A stretch of 64,000 bases of DNA from an uncultured Bacilli bacterium (GTDB lineage: Bacteria; Bacillota_I; Bacilli_A; RF39; UBA660). The notes under the pieces are model-generated. The model was not told where the DNA came from and searched no databases. It saw nothing but the letters and a program-made list of their open reading frames with translations. Each line of letters opens with the position of its first letter. The first letter of the stretch is position 1. The position numbers and the translations under genes were made by a program. Shown here in pieces: positions 8,030-20,055 of the stretch. The stretch covers positions 5,935 to 69,934 of the forward strand of contig CALVSO010000002.1 of assembly GCA_944359055.1 (NCBI GenBank). Reading direction: 5' to 3'.

Positions 8030-10192
8030 ATGAAAAAGAAATTGTGGGGAGTATGGGAACTGGAAGAAAAGATAGGAACCGGTTCTTTTGGGACAGTTTA
8101 TAAAGCTAGGAAAACTGAATTAGGAAAAGATTTTTATGCTGCTATAAAACATATTTCTTTTCCTAAAGATGAGGAAGAATTAGAAGAAATAAAAAGAGAA
8201 GGAAATGTAATTTCTATTGATAGTATAAGAGATTATTATAAAGATACAATTGATGATTTGATAAAAGAAATAGAAATAATGTATGAATTACGTGCTAATA
8301 AGAATATAGTTGATTATCAAGATCATTTAATAATTGAAAAAGAAAATAAATTAGGCTATGATGTTTACATTAGAATGGAATTATTAACTCCTTTAGATAA
8401 ATACATAGAAGGTAATAAAATCGATGAGGAATTAGTAACAAAAATAGGTGTTGATATATGTCAAGCATTAGAAGTATGTAAAACTCATCATTTACTTCAT
8501 CGAGATATCAAACCGGCAAATATCTTTGTTGATGATAATGGTACATTTAAATTAGGTGATTTTGGTGTTGCTAAAAAATTAGAAAAAACAACTCTTAACA
8601 TGAGTAAAAAAGGCACGTTTAATTATATGGCACCTGAGATTTATAAAGGAAAAATTGCTGATATTAGAAGTGATATTTACTCATTAGGAATTGTTATGTA
8701 TCGCTTATTAAATAATAATAAAGCACCTTTTATTGATAAAAATATGACATTAGTTAAAGCATCTGATAATGAAACAGCTTTAATGAAAAGAATGTCTGGA
8801 GAATTAATTCCTCCTATAGAAGGTATAAGTCAAAAACTTCAAACTATAATATATACCGCTTGCAGTTATGACAAAAATAATCGGTATGATGATCCTGATA
8901 TAATGCGAAAAGATTTATTAAAATCAGATGATAAATATGAAAGAAAATTTTCTGATGAGTATGACAAAACAGTATCAATTTATGAAGATTATGATAAAAC
9001 AGTATCGATTTATGATAAAGAAACACCAAATGAAAAAAATATTAAAGCAGATTTATTTATACCTAATAATTCTGATGATGAACTAAGAGATAGAATAAGA
9101 AGAATAATTGAAGAAGAAAGAAATAATGAAAGACCAAAATATGATGTTGAGGTTTATTATGAACAATTAAATAAAAAAATGCCATTATTAAGTTTTTTAT
9201 TATCCTTTGCTTTAGCAATTTTACTATTTGTACCTATATCATATGTGGTAAATTTAACAAATTTAAATTATGATATAATGGATATTATGTATAATAGTGA
9301 ATTGTTTAAAAGTGAAATAGGTATATTAATAGTGTTTTGCTTTATAACTTTAGTAGCATTTTTAATATCTATAACAGGTAAAAAACAATATAAAAATTCT
9401 AAAAAATTATATATTATAAATATGATATTATTAATTATTCAAGCAATTTTATTTTATAATAAAAGATTTAATGTTAATGTATTATATATTTGTTATTTTA
9501 TAATTACATTTATTTTGTATATTCTTCCATATAAATGGAATTTAAAATTAGAACAATTAAAAGTTGAAAAAGATAGTATTGATTATTATAAAGAAAAAAA
9601 TAAAAAATTAAATCAAATTTACAATAAAGAAGAAAAAGTAAATAAAAAAATCTACATATTTATAGGATTACTTTTTGTTGTTTCTATAACATTTGCATTT
9701 TTACCTTTTGAAAGTCAAAGTAATAAAAATTTAAAAGATAATTATGTGAAAATTATAACTGATTATATAAATTTAAGAGATGAACCATCATATTCAGGTG
9801 ACATAATTGGAATAGTTTATCAAGATGAAGTTTATAATATTTTAAGTAGTATAGATTCTAATAAAATTGTTTGGTATGAAATTGAAATGGAAAATGGCAA
9901 AAGAGGATATTTAACTAGTGGCTATAATCATGAATATATAGATGCTATAATAAAAAACAAACAAGTTGATAGGTTAGAGGTTATAAATGATTATATTAAT
10001 GTTAGAGAAGACGCTAATACAACATCTAATAGTTTAGGACAAGTTTATAAAGGAGAACAATATGATATTTTAGAAATAATCAAAGGGGATTATTATTATT
10101 GGTATAAAATATTATACGATGGTAAAGAAGCTTATATAGCTAGCCCAAAAGGTAACGAATATGTAAAATTAATGGGTGATTATAATGATTAG
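8030..10192 (+). CDS. Eukaryotic-like Ser/Thr protein kinase: N-terminal kinase domain, 5 TM helices, two C-terminal SH3b (SH3_3) domains
   Basis: Hanks motifs: GTGSFGTVYKA...AIK (ATP site), HRDIKPANIFV (catalytic loop), DFG and APE. Hydrophobic helices in aa ~385-545. Two copies of the NVR-x-PS-G...WYEI SH3b pattern. Confidence 0.85.
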   Translation: MKKKLWGVWELEEKIGTGSFGTVYKARKTELGKDFYAAIKHISFPKDEEELEEIKREGNVISIDSIRDYYKDTIDDLIKEIEIMYELRANKNIVDYQDHLIIEKENKLGYDVYIRMELLTPLDKYIEGNKIDEELVTKIGVDICQALEVCKTHHLLHRDIKPANIFVDDNGTFKLGDFGVAKKLEKTTLNMSKKGTFNYMAPEIYKGKIADIRSDIYSLGIVMYRLLNNNKAPFIDKNMTLVKASDNETALMKRMSGELIPPIEGISQKLQTIIYTACSYDKNNRYDDPDIMRKDLLKSDDKYERKFSDEYDKTVSIYEDYDKTVSIYDKETPNEKNIKADLFIPNNSDDELRDRIRRIIEEERNNERPKYDVEVYYEQLNKKMPLLSFLLSFALAILLFVPISYVVNLTNLNYDIMDIMYNSELFKSEIGILIVFCFITLVAFLISITGKKQYKNSKKLYIINMILLIIQAILFYNKRFNVNVLYICYFIITFILYILPYKWNLKLEQLKVEKDSIDYYKEKNKKLNQIYNKEEKVNKKIYIFIGLLFVVSITFAFLPFESQSNKNLKDNYVKIITDYINLRDEPSYSGDIIGIVYQDEVYNILSSIDSNKIVWYEIEMENGKRGYLTSGYNHEYIDAIIKNKQVDRLEVINDYINVREDANTTSNSLGQVYKGEQYDILEIIKGDYYYWYKILYDGKEAYIASPKGNEYVKLMGDYND
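8960..9019 (+). repeat. Tandem 30-nt repeat (2 copies) encoding YDKTVSIYED / YDKTVSIYDK in the kinase juxtamembrane linker
   Basis: Direct repeat read from the sequence. Confidence 0.6.
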
Positions 10193-10874
10193 AAAATGTT
10201 ATTTCGTAAGTAATAAAGGTAATAGAATAAATAATGAAGATAAATTTCAAATCAATAATTTTTCATCTGTTGGCAAAGATGAAATGGGTAAAAAAATAAT
10301 CTTAAATAATGCTTTAATTACTGTAAGTGATGGCATGGGTGGCGAAGAATATGGAGAACTTGCTTCGTTAATTGTTACTAAAGAATTAGCTAGATTATAT
10401 AATAAAAAATTAAATACTAAAAAAATGTTAGAAAATATAATTAATACTAATAATTTAGTCGTTTCAAAAATGAATGAAAAAAAATGTAGGATTGGGGCAA
10501 CATTAGTAAGTGCAATTATTAAAAAAAATACTATTGATATCTACAACGTTGGTGATAGTAGAGCTTATTTATATTCTAATAAATTGATTCAACTAACAAA
10601 AGATCATGCTACTAATAATGGACTAACGCAACATATGGGAATGAATGTAGAAGATGGAGTAATAGAACCTTTTGTTATTGAAAATATAAGTATTAAAAAG
10701 AATGATTATTTATTGTTATGTAGTGATGGTCTTTATAATATGGTAAATAATGAAGAAATTGAAAAAATATTAAATTCAAAACAAAAAGAAATGAATAAAT
10801 GCCAAAATTTTTTAGATTGTGCTTTAAAAAATGGTGGAAAGGATAATATTACATTTTTATTAATAAAGTTTTAG
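10185..10874 (+). CDS. PP2C-family Ser/Thr protein phosphatase
   Basis: VSDGMGG and CSDGL motifs, about 230 aa. Overlaps the kinase 3' end. ATG 10185 preferred over the GTG 10176 used by the track. Confidence 0.8.
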   Translation: MIRKCYFVSNKGNRINNEDKFQINNFSSVGKDEMGKKIILNNALITVSDGMGGEEYGELASLIVTKELARLYNKKLNTKKMLENIINTNNLVVSKMNEKKCRIGATLVSAIIKKNTIDIYNVGDSRAYLYSNKLIQLTKDHATNNGLTQHMGMNVEDGVIEPFVIENISIKKNDYLLLCSDGLYNMVNNEEIEKILNSKQKEMNKCQNFLDCALKNGGKDNITFLLIKF

Positions 10875-10883
10875 GTGGTATAT

Positions 10884-13217
10884 ATGGATGAATACGAAAA
10901 AACAGTCAGTTGTTATGAAGATAAAAAAATTAAGATAGAAAGTAATGAATCATTTTATTTAACAATTATAAATGATGATAAAATTGAAACTTATAATCTA
11001 AATGATTTTAATTCTTCTCAAATAACTTTTGGAAGAAAAGATGATAATGATATTGTTATCGATTCAATGTTGATATCTGGTCATCATGGTTATTTTAATA
11101 TAGTTGATGATGAAATATATATTATTGATGATAACAGTACTAATGGAATATTTTATAATGGTAAAACAATAAAAGAGCAAAAACTTTCTGATCGTGATAT
11201 TTTTAAAATTGATAATCCTAAAGAGCCCTTAAATAAAGGGGTTATGTTTATTTTGTCTTTAAATGAAAAAAAAGTAAATTGGGATTCTTATGATTTAAGT
11301 AAAAAAGAAACTATAACAATAGGAAGAGATAATTCATGTGATATTGTTTTAAGACATGTTGGTGTTTCTAAAAAACATGCGATTATAACGAAAAAAGATA
11401 ATAAATATTTTATTAAAGATAATGATAGTACTAATAATACTTCAGTTAATGGTGAAATAATAAGTAATCAAATTAAATTAAAAGAAAAAGATGTAATATT
11501 AATTACTAATTCATTATTTATCTATTCATTTGGAAGACTTATTTATCAAACTTTTAATGAAGGTGTAAAAGTTGAAGCATATGATATTGTAAAAACAGTT
11601 GCTACTAAAGGTGGAACTAAAGATATTTTAAAACATATTAGTTTAGAGATTAAACCTTCTAATTTTGTTGCCTTAGTAGGAGGGTCTGGTGCTGGTAAGA
11701 GTACTTTCATGAATAGTATTAGTGGTTTTTCTAAACCAACAAGTGGTAATGTGTTAGTTAATGGTGTTGATTTATATGATAATTATTCAGTATTAAAAAA
11801 TATAATTGGATATGTTCCTCAACAGGATATAGTTTATACAAATCTAAGACTTTATGATATGTTAAAATATGCTGCTGATTTAAGGATGCCTGAAGACTCA
11901 ACTGATGAGGAAAAGGAAATCCAAATAGCTAAAGTTTTAGATATAGTAGATTTAACAGAACATAAAGATACTTATATAAGAAAATTATCAGGTGGTCAAA
12001 GAAAACGAGCAAGTATAGCGGTAGAATTGATAGCAGATCCAACTTTATTTTTCTTAGATGAACCAACAAGTGGTTTGGATCCTGGTACTGAAAGAAGTAT
12101 TATGAAAACACTAAAAAACATGTCTGAATCAGGAAAAACTGTAATATTAGTTACTCATACAACATTGAATTTGCACTTATGTGATATGGTTGTTTTTATA
12201 GGTCGTGGTGGTAAATTATGTTTTGCTGGAAAACCAAATGATGCGTTAAAATTTTTTGGAGTATCTGATTTTGTTGATATTTATACATATATAAACAATG
12301 ATTCAGATAGTTGGAATAGTAAGTTTTTAAATTCAGAGTATTATAATCCTGTTTTTGAAAAACAAACTGAAAGAGTAGATGATACTACTAATGTTAATAA
12401 AAAATCTTTTATAAAACAATTTATTACTTTAACAACAAGATATTTAAAATTAATAATAAATGATAAACAACGATTAGCGCTTCTTTTATTACAAGCTCCA
12501 ATTATTTCATTTTTATTAAGTTTAGTTACTAATAGTGGTGTTTTTAAAAATTATGATGATACAAAAGCAATATTATTTTCTTTATCATGTTCTTGTATTT
12601 GGTTAGGAATTTTAAATTCAATTCAAGAAATATGCAAGGAAAAAGTTATTTTAAAAAAAGAATATATGGCTGATTTGAAGTTATCGTCATATATATGTTC
12701 CAAATTAATTGTCCAGTCTTTATTAGCATTTATTCAATCATTTATATTAATAACTGTTTATGCTATGTTAGTTGAATTTCCATCGGAAAGTTTAATAATA
12801 AATCCTTATTTTGATTTTTTAATTATTTCAACAATAACAATTATTTCTGCAGCAAGTTTAGGAATATTAATATCTAGTATTGTCAAAGATGCAAATATAG
12901 CAATGTCAGTTGCTCCATTAATTTTAGTTCCACAATTATTATTTTCTGGAATGTTATTTGAACTTAAAGATTTTTCTTCTTTTATTTCTAATTTTGTATT
13001 ATGTAGATTTAGTGTTTCAGCTTTGGGTACCACTTTAGATTTAAATAACATGCCTAATAAGATTTTTGTATTAGGATTTGTAAGAGAAGCCGAAGATTAT
13101 TTTAATTATACTTCTAGTCATTATTTTATTATGCTATTAGTATTACTTGGTATGAGTTTATTAATGATAATTGGTTCATATATAGTTTTAAGAAAAGAGT
13201 TAGATAATAGAAAATAA
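10884..13217 (+). CDS. ABC exporter with two N-terminal FHA domains, an ABC ATPase domain and a 6-TM ABC-2 permease (Rv1747-like architecture)
   Basis: FHA signatures: ITFGRK...GHHGYF...STNGIFYNG and ITIGRD...VSKKHA...STNNTSVNG. Walker A GGSGAGKST, signature LSGGQRKRASIA, Walker B LFFLDEPTSGLD, six C-terminal TM helices. ATG 10884 behind RBS aggtgg; the track used GTG 10875. Confidence 0.85.
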   Translation: MDEYEKTVSCYEDKKIKIESNESFYLTIINDDKIETYNLNDFNSSQITFGRKDDNDIVIDSMLISGHHGYFNIVDDEIYIIDDNSTNGIFYNGKTIKEQKLSDRDIFKIDNPKEPLNKGVMFILSLNEKKVNWDSYDLSKKETITIGRDNSCDIVLRHVGVSKKHAIITKKDNKYFIKDNDSTNNTSVNGEIISNQIKLKEKDVILITNSLFIYSFGRLIYQTFNEGVKVEAYDIVKTVATKGGTKDILKHISLEIKPSNFVALVGGSGAGKSTFMNSISGFSKPTSGNVLVNGVDLYDNYSVLKNIIGYVPQQDIVYTNLRLYDMLKYAADLRMPEDSTDEEKEIQIAKVLDIVDLTEHKDTYIRKLSGGQRKRASIAVELIADPTLFFLDEPTSGLDPGTERSIMKTLKNMSESGKTVILVTHTTLNLHLCDMVVFIGRGGKLCFAGKPNDALKFFGVSDFVDIYTYINNDSDSWNSKFLNSEYYNPVFEKQTERVDDTTNVNKKSFIKQFITLTTRYLKLIINDKQRLALLLLQAPIISFLLSLVTNSGVFKNYDDTKAILFSLSCSCIWLGILNSIQEICKEKVILKKEYMADLKLSSYICSKLIVQSLLAFIQSFILITVYAMLVEFPSESLIINPYFDFLIISTITIISAASLGILISSIVKDANIAMSVAPLILVPQLLFSGMLFELKDFSSFISNFVLCRFSVSALGTTLDLNNMPNKIFVLGFVREAEDYFNYTSSHYFIMLLVLLGMSLLMIIGSYIVLRKELDNRK

Positions 13218-13299: not shown

Positions 13300-14124
13300 A
13301 TGTCAAAGTTTTATACAGCAAAATATGAATCAGTTTTTATGTATTCAGCAGTAAAACATCCAAAAATATTAAAAAAATTAATTGAACAAATATTAAATAA
13401 AAAATATAATGAATTTATTGTATTAAATCCTAATTTAATAAAAGATAATATACATAATATAGGTCAGAAATTAGATTTATTAATTAAAGCAAATGATGAA
13501 TATATAAATGTAGAATTAAATTCTAAATATAACAAATACATAAAAGAAAGAAATTTATTATATGTATTTAAGTTATGTTTGGATAAAAGTGAAAAAGATA
13601 AACAAACATTAAAGGGTAATGTTAGGCAAATAAATATAAATTTTGGAAGAAAAAGTAAAGGAATAGAAGATATAGCGGTAGTAAATTTAACTGATAATAA
13701 AAAATTGACAACAAAAATAGAAATAAAGAATTTAAATGTAGACTTTTATACAAAAAAATATTATAATAATTATAAGTTAACAAAAGAAGAAGAGTTATAT
13801 ACTATGTTAGGATTAGCATTAGAAGAACTAGAAAAATTAAGTGAAAGGAATGATATAGTGAAAGAATTTAAAGAAAGTGTAGAAGAAGCTAATAAAGATG
13901 AATTAGTAGTAAAATGGTTTACTCCAGAACAAGAACGAGAAATGCGAGAAAATTATATAAAAAGTGAAGCTGAAGAAAAAGGTATGAAAAAAGGAATAAA
14001 AAAAGGTAAATTAGAAGGAATATTGCAAACTGCTAAAAATATGCTAGAAGCAAACATGAATATTGAAACAGTATCAAAATTAACTGGTTTATCTGTAAAG
14101 AAAATAAAAGATATGTTACTATAA
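13300..14124 (+). CDS. Rpn family recombination-promoting nuclease / putative transposase (PD-(D/E)XK, YhgA-like)
   Basis: N-terminal FMYSAVKHPKILKKLIEQIL...LDLLIKANDEYINVELNS core. C-terminal KGMKKGIKKGKLEGILQ...ETVSKLTGLSVKKIKDML tail typical of the family. Strong RBS aggagg. Confidence 0.6.
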   Translation: MSKFYTAKYESVFMYSAVKHPKILKKLIEQILNKKYNEFIVLNPNLIKDNIHNIGQKLDLLIKANDEYINVELNSKYNKYIKERNLLYVFKLCLDKSEKDKQTLKGNVRQININFGRKSKGIEDIAVVNLTDNKKLTTKIEIKNLNVDFYTKKYYNNYKLTKEEELYTMLGLALEELEKLSERNDIVKEFKESVEEANKDELVVKWFTPEQEREMRENYIKSEAEEKGMKKGIKKGKLEGILQTAKNMLEANMNIETVSKLTGLSVKKIKDMLL

Positions 14125-17553: not shown

Positions 17554-20055
17554 ATGATTCGAGAAGTAGAAAATGGAATAACAAAAATTGATGATAGAGT
17601 AATTGAGAACAATCAAATAAAAAGTGTAAAAATACCAGAAAGTGTAGTAGAGATAGGTAAATGTGAATTTAGTACTAAGAGAATAACGAAAGTGGAAATA
17701 GCAGAAGGTGTAACAAAAATTGGACCCTGGGCATTTGCGAACAATTTAATAACAAGCATAAGAATACCAGGAAGCGTAGTCGAAATAGGCGAAAGTGCAT
17801 TTAGACGTAATAAAATAACGAAAGTAGAGATAGCAGAAGGTGTAACAAAAATTAGATCCCTAGCATTTGAGGACAATCAAATAACAAGTGTAATAATACC
17901 AGAAAGTGTAGTTGAAATAGGCAGGAGTGCATTTGAGAATAATCAAATAACAAGCGTAATAATACCAAGAAGCGTAGTTGAAATAGGCGAAAGTGCATTT
18001 AAGCACAATCAAATAACAAGCGTAATAATACCAGAAAGCGTAGCCAAAATAGGTTATAGTGCATTTGATCACAATCAAATAACAAGTGTAATAATACCAG
18101 AAAGCGTAGTCGAAATAGGTGAATTTGCATTTAGAAACAATCAAATAACAAATGTAAAAATACCAGGAAGTGTAGCCAAAATAGGGTATGGTGCATTTAT
18201 GGGTAATCAAATAACAAGTGTAATAATACCAGAAAGCGTAGTCGAAATAGGTGAATTTGCATTTGAGAATAATCAAATAAAAAGTGTAAAAATACCAGAA
18301 AGCGTAGTCAAAATAGGCAAAAATGCCTTTTGTAATAATCAAATATCGGAAATAGAAATAGCAGAAGGTGTAATCGAAATAGGCTTTCTTGCATTTTTTG
18401 ATAATCAAATAACAAGCGTAAGAATACCAGAAAGCGTAGCTAAAATAGGCAAAAGTGCATTTGCTCACAATCCGTTAACAAATATTTATCTTCCTAAAAA
18501 GATATCAACAGTTTCTATGAGTTCATTTGATGATTGTAATTTAAAAGAAATGACTTTTTACAGTACATTAAAAAACATATCAAGTGATTACAATTATTCC
18601 GATAATAGTTTTCGTGAAATAGAAGAAATTACAATAATAGAAGCGGATTATAAATATTTAACTTATTTTGAAGAAAAAATGTTAGGATTTTTTCCTAATG
18701 TAAAAAAAATAAATTTAAAAAATTTCTTGGTAGATTTATTTGATGTAAAAGAGGTGAATTTTTCAAATCCAAATGTAAAAATAAATATTCAAAACGTTAT
18801 TATAGATAATAGCGGTGTAAAAAATATAACAAATAAATTTAACTTATCTCAAGAAACTTTAGAATTAATTATGCAAATTTATGAAGCAATCAATTTATTT
18901 CCTGTCAAAAAACAAATAGAAGCGGCTTTCATTTTAAAAGAGATAATTAATAACTATGAAAAAAATATTTCTAAGAATGAACCTCAATTTGATTTAAAGC
19001 AAACCTCAAACTTTTCATTAGAAGTTGATAATAAAGATTTAAAAAGTATAGAAATTCAAATGATTGTTTCTCTTCAATCTTTGCTTTATAATTTGAATAG
19101 CCAAAGTCAATCCATAAAAGATTTAGAAAAACTAAAAAAATATATTAATATATTGAAAGAACTAGAAGAACCTGATAATGATATTGAAAATAAGATAAAA
19201 AAAATTTTAGAAATTTCTAAAAAACTAAATTTTGAAAAAAGTAGTGACTACTTAAAAGATTTGATTTCTAAAACTGAACAAGAAATTGTATCTTCGATTA
19301 ATTTTGATTTGTCGATAAAATTAGTATATACAGATTGTATTTTAGAATTGGAAAATAAAATTAATAATATGTATGAAAAATATAGTCAAATATGGAAAAA
19401 AATCAAACCATATTTCGAATTGAAAGAACAGTTAACTAAAGGTGATTTTGCCAACATTAAGGAAATTAAAAATGTCTTAAATAGGTTAGACAGTTTCACG
19501 AAAAACAAATATGACAAAATTTTAAATAAATTAGAAGAAGACTTTATTACAAAAATTAATGATTGTATAGAAATAACAAAAAATAATAAGGAAGCTGATT
19601 CGATTAATGAATTGAAAACGGAATTTAAAAATCAATTAAATCCAATTTTGGTTGAACTAAAAGAAGATGCTTTGAAATATGAAAGAAATGGTAAATTATT
19701 GAATGAGCTTAAGCAATCTTTAAATATATTAAAAAACGAAAATGTAGATGAAGTCGATGGCTCTATATATGAAACAGTTGTTGATATTAAAGGATTAACT
19801 CAAAATTTAAATAAAAATGAAAGAGAACAAACAAATTTAGAAGTAGAAAATATTATTATTAAATGGTTAAAAATTGTACAAGAAAATAATTACGGGGAAT
19901 TAGTAAAAAAATATAAAGAAGAAAGACCTGATTTAGAAATATCTAATTCTATATTAATAGTTCACTTAATAATATTAGATGATTTATTAAAAGTAAAAGA
20001 TTATATTAATTCATATTTAGAAAATAAAAAAGAATATGATAGTTTTAAAAAATAG
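17554..20055 (+). CDS. BspA-type leucine-rich repeat (LRR_5) protein with a long K/E/N-rich coiled-coil C-terminal half. No signal peptide.
   Basis: About 14 tandem 22-aa repeats I[TK]SVxIPESVVEIGxxAFxxNQ, then about 520 aa of low-complexity helical sequence. Confidence 0.75.
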   Translation: MIREVENGITKIDDRVIENNQIKSVKIPESVVEIGKCEFSTKRITKVEIAEGVTKIGPWAFANNLITSIRIPGSVVEIGESAFRRNKITKVEIAEGVTKIRSLAFEDNQITSVIIPESVVEIGRSAFENNQITSVIIPRSVVEIGESAFKHNQITSVIIPESVAKIGYSAFDHNQITSVIIPESVVEIGEFAFRNNQITNVKIPGSVAKIGYGAFMGNQITSVIIPESVVEIGEFAFENNQIKSVKIPESVVKIGKNAFCNNQISEIEIAEGVIEIGFLAFFDNQITSVRIPESVAKIGKSAFAHNPLTNIYLPKKISTVSMSSFDDCNLKEMTFYSTLKNISSDYNYSDNSFREIEEITIIEADYKYLTYFEEKMLGFFPNVKKINLKNFLVDLFDVKEVNFSNPNVKINIQNVIIDNSGVKNITNKFNLSQETLELIMQIYEAINLFPVKKQIEAAFILKEIINNYEKNISKNEPQFDLKQTSNFSLEVDNKDLKSIEIQMIVSLQSLLYNLNSQSQSIKDLEKLKKYINILKELEEPDNDIENKIKKILEISKKLNFEKSSDYLKDLISKTEQEIVSSINFDLSIKLVYTDCILELENKINNMYEKYSQIWKKIKPYFELKEQLTKGDFANIKEIKNVLNRLDSFTKNKYDKILNKLEEDFITKINDCIEITKNNKEADSINELKTEFKNQLNPILVELKEDALKYERNGKLLNELKQSLNILKNENVDEVDGSIYETVVDIKGLTQNLNKNEREQTNLEVENIIIKWLKIVQENNYGELVKKYKEERPDLEISNSILIVHLIILDDLLKVKDYINSYLENKKEYDSFKK
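17605..18481 (+). repeat. Array of about 14 near-identical 66-nt tandem repeats encoding the LRR units
   Basis: Visible nucleotide-level periodicity (ataacaagygtaataataccagaaagcgtagtygaaatagg...). It generates spurious antisense ORFs. Confidence 0.8.

Follow-up and report, generated by a model that had tools for sequence, protein, structure and literature searches.

The window analysed here is a 64,000-nucleotide stretch of DNA from an uncultured Bacilli bacterium (contig CALVSO010000002.1). The genome has a GC content of 25.6% and its sequence is rich in D, E, K and Y. On the + strand, the window carries a three-gene operon encoding a Hanks-type serine/threonine kinase (8030-10192), a PP2C-type phosphatase (10185-10874) and an ATP-binding cassette (ABC) half-transporter with a pair of forkhead-associated (FHA) domains (FHA-FHA-ABC, 10884-13217; hereafter the exporter). 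The subject of this report is a short threonine motif found in the kinase and again in the exporter. The features of the operon are as follows, with protein positions given in amino acids (aa) and DNA positions in nucleotides (nt).

8030..10192, + strand: Hanks-type Ser/Thr kinase gene, 720 aa (Pfam Pkinase, E=3e-43; SH3_3, E=1e-18)
8057..8911, + strand: kinase catalytic domain, aa 10-294 (Pfam PF00069)
8954..8986, + strand: linker motif copy 1, DEYDKTVSIYE, D309-E319, with the predicted phospho-acceptor Thr314 at 8969-8971
8987..9016, + strand: linker motif copy 2, DYDKTVSIYD, D320-D329, with the predicted phospho-acceptor Thr324 at 8999-9001
9194..9706, + strand: five predicted transmembrane segments of the kinase, aa 389-407, 430-448, 457-475, 482-500 and 541-559 (Kyte-Doolittle)
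9752..10144, + strand: two bacterial SH3 (SH3_3) domains of the kinase (Pfam PF08239, two stretches; start approximate)
10185..10874, + strand: PP2C-type Ser/Thr phosphatase gene, 229 aa (Pfam PP2C, E=1e-16)
10873..10878, + strand: Shine-Dalgarno sequence AGGTGG before the exporter ATG
10884..13217, + strand: FHA-FHA-ABC half-transporter gene, 777 aa, of Rv1747-like architecture (Pfam FHA twice, ABC_tran, ABC2_membrane)
10887..10922, + strand: exporter N-terminal motif, DEYEKTVSCYED, D2-D13, with the predicted phospho-acceptor Thr7 at 10902-10904
10953..11261, + strand: FHA domain 1 (FHA1), aa 24-126, signature GR51...S65..H68...N87; AlphaFold2 beta-sandwich with a predicted local distance difference test (pLDDT) score of 87-96
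11283..11552, + strand: FHA domain 2 (FHA2), aa 134-223, signature GR148...S..H165...N (best Pfam stretch 144-207)
11628..12071, + strand: ABC nucleotide-binding domain of the exporter, aa 249-396 (Pfam PF00005; PDB matches to the nucleotide-binding domains of ABCA, ABCB and ABCG)
12417..12983, + strand: ABC-2 type membrane domain of the exporter, aa 512-700 (Pfam PF01061)

The domain assignments made in an earlier reading of the window, which used the sequence only, were confirmed by Pfam for all three proteins (Pkinase and two SH3_3; PP2C; two FHA with ABC_tran and ABC2_membrane). The kinase is laid out as a cytoplasmic catalytic domain, a juxtamembrane linker, five predicted transmembrane helices and a predicted extracellular pair of SH3_3 domains. 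Its Lys (VAIK-type, here AAIKH), HRD and DFG motifs can be read intact in the translation, as can the metal-binding motifs DGMGG and DN of the PP2C, whose gene is also called on public contig L013. The C-terminal SH3_3 domains, whose strongest Pfam match covers aa 656-705 (nt 9995-10144), are predicted to lie outside the cell because the number of predicted transmembrane segments is odd, and are presumably an extracellular sensor or a cell-wall-binding part. The start ATG of the PP2C overlaps the kinase stop by 8 nt (10185-10192, in ATGATTAG), which suggests translational coupling, and the exporter gene, which has a separate AGGTGG ribosome-binding site, begins 9 nt past the PP2C stop. Because of this Shine-Dalgarno sequence and of independent public gene calls (the public protein P0001 is 100% identical over 777 aa, with the same start), the exporter start can be placed at ATG 10884 and the motif at the extreme N-terminus.

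In the kinase, the linker stretch D309-E331 (nt 8954-9022) reads DEYDKTVSIYEDYDKTVSIYDKE (within the linker: SDEYDKTVSIYEDYDKTVSIYDKE) and contains DEYDKTVSIYE followed directly by DYDKTVSIYD. The exporter, read from ATG 10884, begins with MDEYEKTVSCYEDKK (start also given as MDEYEKTVSCYED). When the window is translated in six frames, KT[VIL]S.[YF] matches these three sites only, two in the linker and one in the exporter. Residues 2-13 of the exporter reach a best ungapped BLOSUM62 score of 55 against the kinase, a score attained by none of 5000 shuffled kinases (mean 18.8, standard deviation 3.7, maximum 38); the highest score of any unrelated peptide in the window is 26. The likeness between the kinase and exporter motifs is far beyond chance. 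The sequence-only reading had reported this shared motif, and had noted that near-identical peptides are encoded by diverged DNA; both observations hold. Indeed, kinase copy 1 and the exporter copy share 27/36 nt (9/36 differ), and the codons differ at four of the ten identical residues, including a TCA/AGT serine switch. The 30-nt tandem repeat that it had placed at 8960-9019 is also present, with slightly shifted coordinates: Tandem Repeats Finder reports it at 8949-9015, with a period of 30 nt, 2.2 copies and 86% matches.

Related loci were collected by a genome scan (L001-L012, n=12) and a metagenome scan (L032-L038, n=7), with the N-terminal alignment as query, and by exact-protein look-ups; the set of loci available for comparison is small, with some redundancy. 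Homologues of the exporter with 50-57% identity are numerous. Of the 21 related exporter loci whose flanks could be used, 17 have a kinase gene next to the exporter gene (the exceptions are L004, L010, L025 and L033). All 21 kinases adjoining related FHA-ABC or FHA/zinc-ribbon genes carry one to five copies of (D/E)K-T-(V/I)-(S/G)-(I/V/L)-(Y/Q), the residue at +3 from the threonine being Ile, Val or Leu. When the linkers are aligned, the motif is the sole conserved island in an otherwise divergent juxtamembrane region. At most related loci the exporter gene is followed by the kinase gene, without a PP2C, and the kinase has one transmembrane helix and Cys-rich extracellular repeats. The catalytic domains of those kinases are only 34-43% identical to that of the window kinase, and the motif is present in every one, about 10-40 residues past the end of the catalytic domain. 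Gene order and the extracellular domains (SH3_3, Cys-rich repeats, PASTA) differ among the kinases that share it, and the variants read EKTLSIYD, NKTISIYD, NKTVSIYD, DKTVSIQE, EKTVSIQE, DKTISIQE, EKTVGIYE, EKTLGIYE, EKTVSVYN, DRTVSLAD, NDKTISIYD, GKTISIYD, VTIGIYD and DKTESIYS.

A protein search with kinase aa 1-377 gave a best match that is 67% identical, and public contigs L013-L016 also carry a gene call for the window kinase itself. The kinases closest to it share its SH3_3 architecture, at 61-67% identity, and contain one to three tandem copies with an 11-aa period, for example DELDKTVSIYEDELDKTVSIYQDELEKTVSIYD; the spacers vary and the KTVS(I/V)Y core is intact in 21/21 copies. A PASTA-type kinase adjoining another FHA-ABC exporter has three YDKTESIYS copies and two degenerate ones. 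In view of these recurring changes in copy number, the tandem duplication in the window is one instance of a wider pattern, occurring in a selected motif. The threonine is invariant in 43/43 tabulated kinase-linker copies and in five strict N-terminal copies, and is kept in the looser N-terminal variants, which points to a phospho-acceptor. A conserved linker motif of this kind would fit an FHA docking site or an autophosphorylation site.

The copy on the FHA protein is distributed differently. Equivalent N-terminal copies were found in P0006, P0008, L018, L023, L024 and L037, and only about four of 150 diverse FHA1-like domain representatives have one. The copy is always at the extreme N-terminus; its threonine is residue 5-10, and the first FHA strand follows 12-17 residues later. 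The exporter homologue P0006 (92% identical) begins with MDEYEKTISCYEE and P0008 (56% identical) with MDKFEKTVSSF; variant exporter N-termini are MDNEQTVLYKE, MDNNKTVIYKE, MDEKTTFYRED and MEEGTIIYSE. In L018 and L023, an SH3_3 kinase with three copies of DKTVSVY is followed by a PP2C and then by a different effector, an FHA/zinc-ribbon/transmembrane protein that begins with MMFMEDELEKTVSVYS (L018) or MEEELDRTVSVYS (L023). A homologue beginning with MEEEYDKTVSIYD is preceded by a PP2C in L037. The +3 residue of the N-terminal copy on these FHA proteins of L018, L023 and L037 (Val or Ile) matches that of the cognate kinase, and over all exporter and FHA-protein copies the +3 residue is C, S, V or I.

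When all loci are divided by a hidden Markov model scan for PP2C, an N-terminal Thr motif is present on the FHA protein in 6/6 operons with a PP2C (the window, L018, L023, L037, L019 and L024) and a clear N-terminal copy in 0/12 exporter-kinase operons without one. A naive Fisher test of this association gives p ~5e-5; counted as independent lineages (about four versus five), it gives p ~0.008. The FHA-protein copy has thus been added in particular lineages and goes together with a PP2C encoded in the operon. A loose form of the motif, searched in six frames over ~379 kb of related loci, matched kinase linkers and the N-termini of FHA proteins; the one other match was a spurious short open reading frame. 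Pattern matches of the TVSGYHAE type inside FHA domains correspond to the FHA SxxH signature and not to the motif, and were discarded. A profile search with the motif and FHA1 as one module returned short proteobacterial FHA proteins only and was uninformative about the motif.

Several observations on these operons may be added. The exporters of L004, L025 and L033 (MDEKTTFYRED, MEEGTIIYSE and MDERTTFYRED) have no kinase or PP2C gene within the available flanks; either the genes of their partners are located elsewhere or a distal kinase acts on the tail. Across the window and the related loci, the gene orders kinase-PP2C-exporter, PP2C-exporter-kinase and exporter-kinase all occur. The window operon has a mosaic appearance. 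Pairs serving FHA/zinc-ribbon proteins are the nearest relatives of its kinase and PP2C (61-67%), and the nearest relatives of its exporter are exporters that an unrelated Cys-rich-repeat kinase follows, without a PP2C. A comparison made for a module swap, in which the motif and FHA1 of an FHA/zinc-ribbon operon would have been transferred to an exporter, favours neither origin, the window FHA1 being 41-49% identical to the FHA domain of the zinc-ribbon proteins and 41-54% identical to FHA1 of other exporters.

Both FHA1 and FHA2 of the exporter keep the canonical phosphothreonine-binding signature GR...S..H...N(G), and R51, S65, H68 and N87 of FHA1 align with Rv1747 FHA-2 and GarA. In profile searches, exporter FHA2 matched Rv1747 FHA-2 (6cah, E=2e-11), and Rv1747 FHA-1 (6ccd, E=9e-6) was also matched, results that do not imply orthology, FHA domains being generally similar; the FHA1 portion of a profile of the exporter N-terminal region matched GarA and OdhI (E ~1e-9 to 1e-10). 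AlphaFold2 modelled exporter residues 1-260 with a mean pLDDT of 80. Both FHA domains are confident beta-sandwiches, separated by about seven residues (the last strand before the gap ends at 126 and the next begins at 134), and tail residues 1-17, which hold the motif at residues 2-13, are predicted to be disordered (pLDDT <50). Six-frame pattern scans of the window and related loci found no motif in the inter-FHA linker. Around aa 183-192 of FHA2 (11430-11460), the window exporter and P0006 have STNN where orthologues have the canonical STNG; the Asn is kept and the Gly is lost.

On these comparative data, the motif is a selected element, and it most likely serves in signalling in the manner of the mycobacterial kinase/FHA phospho-switches PknF-Rv1747 and PknG-GarA. 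More specifically, and taking the mechanism with it, (D/E)-(K/R)-T-V-S-(I/V/C)-(Y/F)-(D/E) is on balance probably a short linear phospho-threonine signalling motif of the kinase and of its operon partner, the exporter. In the proposed mechanism, an envelope signal perceived through the extracellular SH3b domains would activate the kinase, leading to autophosphorylation of Thr314 and Thr324. The phosphorylated repeats would then dock the FHA domains of the exporter and hold it (as a homodimer, with four FHA domains) at the kinase, which would phosphorylate Thr7 in the disordered N-terminal tail. This tail would suit both the same kinase and the same FHA specificity because its sequence is the same as that of the linker repeats. 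The exporter's own FHA domain would next capture phosphothreonine 7 (pThr7), in cis or across the dimer; pThr7 would thereby compete with the kinase sites and switch the activity or assembly of the exporter, as in GarA/OdhI and Rv1747. Finally, the operon PP2C would dephosphorylate both sites and reset the system. In this scheme we infer the threonine phosphorylation, the FHA binding, the order of events, the pairing of FHA domains with sites, the direction of the effect on transport and the substrate.

Several results weigh against this scheme or limit it. Most orthologous exporters lack the N-terminal copy, which means that the self-binding step cannot be general, and the correlation with PP2C is based on few independent lineages. 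The +3 residue is Cys in the window exporter and Ser in P0008, neither being the classic FHA preference. In distant Clostridia kinases, +3 is variable (P, M, N or Q; the sequences include DKTVSPFD, DKTVSMFGE, ENTVSVFD and DKTVTNFDD), with T-V-S and the aromatic residue at +4 persisting; recognition may therefore depend on other positions or on another reader. In a small control set, an FHA neighbour was found for five of six motif-bearing kinases (P0129, P0126, P0132, P0139, P0208 and P0181) versus one of two motif-less kinases (P0215 and P0149), numbers too small to be informative. The motif-bearing P0181 has a PP2C and no FHA gene within 8 kb, and P0215, without a clear motif, adjoins an FHA-EssC gene. 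AlphaFold2 gave no docked conformation of the tail, as expected with an unphosphorylated tail.

Two claims of the sequence-only reading therefore stand in part. It had argued that the motif fits the pT-x-x-(I/L/V/D) preference of FHA domains, which is true of the kinase copies (I, V or L at +3 in the 21 cognate kinases) and not of the exporter copy, whose Cys is atypical; the argument is weak alone, because +3 varies in the distant Clostridia kinases and it is the T-V-S core and aromatic +4 that persist. Conservation of the motif in orthologous operons, which it had set as a check with absence counting as refutation, was likewise found for the kinase copy; the exporter copy is absent from most orthologous exporters. 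Its argument for selection on the peptide rather than a recent DNA copy is borne out by the diverged DNA and by the recurrence of the kinase-linker/FHA-protein pairing in other operons, including those with a different effector.

The motif could instead be only the preferred substrate sequence of the kinase family, used for autophosphorylation and for the exporter site and not read by the FHA domains; any effect of phosphorylation would then come from charge or conformation, and the FHA domains would have targets of another kind. The hydrophobic +3 and the acidic residues upstream of the threonine do resemble the general substrate preference of mycobacterial Hanks kinases, as reportedly described by Prisic and colleagues in 2010. 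The variable +3 of the distant kinases and the FHA-less neighbourhood of P0181 also agree with such a role, and juxtamembrane phosphorylation of StkP acts in a genus reported to be without FHA domains (PMC12077195). However, the N-terminal copies among the loci examined occur only on FHA proteins, directly upstream of an FHA domain and in two effector architectures, every kinase adjoining an FHA-ABC or FHA/zinc-ribbon gene has the motif, and both FHA domains keep their phosphothreonine-binding residues. We therefore consider a substrate-only role unlikely.

Less likely still is a docking or assembly element that works independently of phosphorylation, for PP2C docking, kinase dimerisation or a third partner, in which case the presence of the motif on both proteins would reflect recruitment of a third factor. 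Such an element would accommodate the strict co-occurrence of the N-terminal copy with PP2C, which is what a phosphatase-docking motif would give, and the strongly conserved aromatic +4 and acidic flanks, which canonical FHA rules do not explain. Kinases in operons without a PP2C nevertheless retain the motif, which cannot then be solely a docking site for the operon PP2C, and the invariance of the threonine is not what this explanation leads one to expect. Finally, that the likeness has no function, and arose in an AT-rich genome of low complexity through slippage together with an earlier duplication or gene conversion, is very improbable and largely excluded by the comparative data: base composition, the true 30-nt tandem repeat and differing copy numbers among relatives speak for it, whereas the shuffling result, the synonymous and Ser-codon-class changes among the 9/36 differing nt, conservation of the core across kinases with such divergent catalytic domains and its independent recurrence on FHA/zinc-ribbon proteins speak against it.

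The principle of a kinase/FHA switch, to which we compare the phospho-threonine signalling motif, is already established. For PknF-Rv1747, FHA-1 has been proposed to recruit the kinase and to bind the transporter's own phosphothreonine sites (PMC3138270), and the logic proposed here is the same. The window exporter shares with Rv1747 two N-terminal FHA domains, a nucleotide-binding domain and an ABC-2 type membrane domain, and in both cases a Hanks kinase is encoded in the same operon. The acceptors of Rv1747, T150/T208 (also numbered T152/T210), are in a long disordered inter-FHA linker, whereas the inter-FHA linker of the window exporter is shorter than 10 residues and its predicted acceptor is at the extreme N-terminus. 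The exporter thus has the architecture and the operon context of the Rv1747 type and lacks its defining feature, an acceptor in the inter-FHA linker. The window system differs further in that its docking and acceptor sites share one explicit motif, tandem in the kinase, that the operon includes a PP2C, and that the host belongs to a low-GC uncultured gut lineage of Bacilli and is not an actinobacterium.

PknG has a disordered extension whose autophosphorylation sites recruit GarA/OdhI through its FHA domain, and the N-terminal ETTS of GarA/OdhI is then phosphorylated (PMC8546545); the phosphorylated tail of GarA binds its own FHA domain (Nott et al. 2009, as cited elsewhere). The GarA acceptor sequence is SDEVTVETTSVFRADFL (PMC8546545), and its ETTSVF and the window KTVS(I/C)Y are both of the form T-x-S-hydrophobic-aromatic. 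GarA and the exporter both have a disordered N-terminal tail (predicted for the window) with a Thr acceptor motif shortly upstream of an FHA domain that has the canonical phosphothreonine-binding residues (R51, S65, H68 and N87 in the window), and the conserved Thr motifs in the juxtamembrane linker of the kinase would, if autophosphorylated, be counterparts of the docking threonines of the PknG extension. In contrast, GarA is a small soluble regulator of tricarboxylic acid cycle enzymes, and the window module is fused to an ABC exporter or, in the relatives L018 and L023, to a zinc-ribbon membrane protein. The docking sites of PknG are poorly conserved and bear no resemblance to the acceptor motif of GarA, while the kinase and substrate motifs of the window are nearly identical. 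We propose, by analogy, that the regulatory module of the exporter would work like GarA/OdhI without being a member of the GarA family.

Two other systems are related in part. FhaA binds the juxtamembrane region of PknB when that region is phosphorylated (as summarised in PMC12077195), so that here too the juxtamembrane region of a membrane Hanks kinase is, once phosphorylated, an FHA docking site. FhaA (Rv0020c) differs from the exporter in being a soluble or scaffold protein. We know of no tandem conserved motif described for PknB-FhaA, and of no matching acceptor motif on the FHA protein. In type VI secretion, the PpkA-PppA-Fha1/TssL pathway likewise uses a triad of Hanks kinase, PP2C and FHA protein to control a membrane machine (for background, see PMC5995506). 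That pathway is proteobacterial, acts on another effector (the type VI secretion system) and is not homologous beyond its domains. To our knowledge, no shared kinase/substrate motif has been reported for it.

Kinases with the linker motif also occur in Clostridia inside type VIIb secretion loci (L022, 8001-12421, with DKTVSLFD and DKTVSPFD; L029, 1-9944, with two copies of ENTVSVFD) that also contain genes for WXG100 and YukD, an EssC ATPase with FHA and a PP2C. Through the motif, kinases may thus also be connected to the FHA domains of EssC in type VII secretion systems. A broader proposal, which we regard as tentative and rather doubtful at its full extent, is that the motif is a general FHA address code for a large family of Firmicute membrane Ser/Thr kinases, with recruitment through tandem copies and a hand-off switch. 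The linker copies would recruit the FHA machine encoded nearby, whether an ABC exporter, a zinc-ribbon membrane protein or the type VII secretion ATPase EssC. Where an identical N-terminal copy and a PP2C are also present, they would make a self-competing hand-off switch (dock, become phosphorylated, self-bind and release). Valency, and possibly clustering of the kind described for Rv1747, would be tuned by the number of copies (1-5).

Full-text literature searches with KTVSIY, DKTVS, EKTVS and KTVSVY gave nothing relevant, and no paper on Firmicute FHA-ABC/kinase/PP2C operons was found in the literature searched. Four features are new here: docking and acceptor motifs that are nearly identical, motif arrays in tandem in the linker of the kinase, a strict association with PP2C and the occurrence in an uncultured low-GC gut lineage of Bacilli. 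If the proposed signalling role is correct, three phosphosites (Thr314 and Thr324 of the kinase, Thr7 of the exporter) and their reader domains will have been predicted from sequence alone, and the logic of the M. tuberculosis PknF-Rv1747 and PknG-GarA systems would hold in Firmicutes too, and more explicitly so, since one and the same peptide makes up the docking site and the acceptor site. This near-identity offers a direct, testable model of an FHA substrate handed from the kinase to itself. It would also provide a sequence rule for pairing orphan Firmicute Ser/Thr kinases with FHA partners, based on a T-V-S-hydrophobic-aromatic motif in the linker, the same motif at the N-terminus of the FHA protein and the presence of a PP2C.

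Outside the operon, the gene directly downstream (13300-14124) encodes a PD-(D/E)XK_2 "nuclease family transposase" (Rpn-like; Pfam PF12784, E=1e-8). Farther along, 17554-20055 encodes an 833-aa LRR_5 (BspA-like) protein with highly regular repeats of about 20 residues, and the long antisense open reading frames at 17613-18468 are probably artefacts of this LRR_5 repeat.

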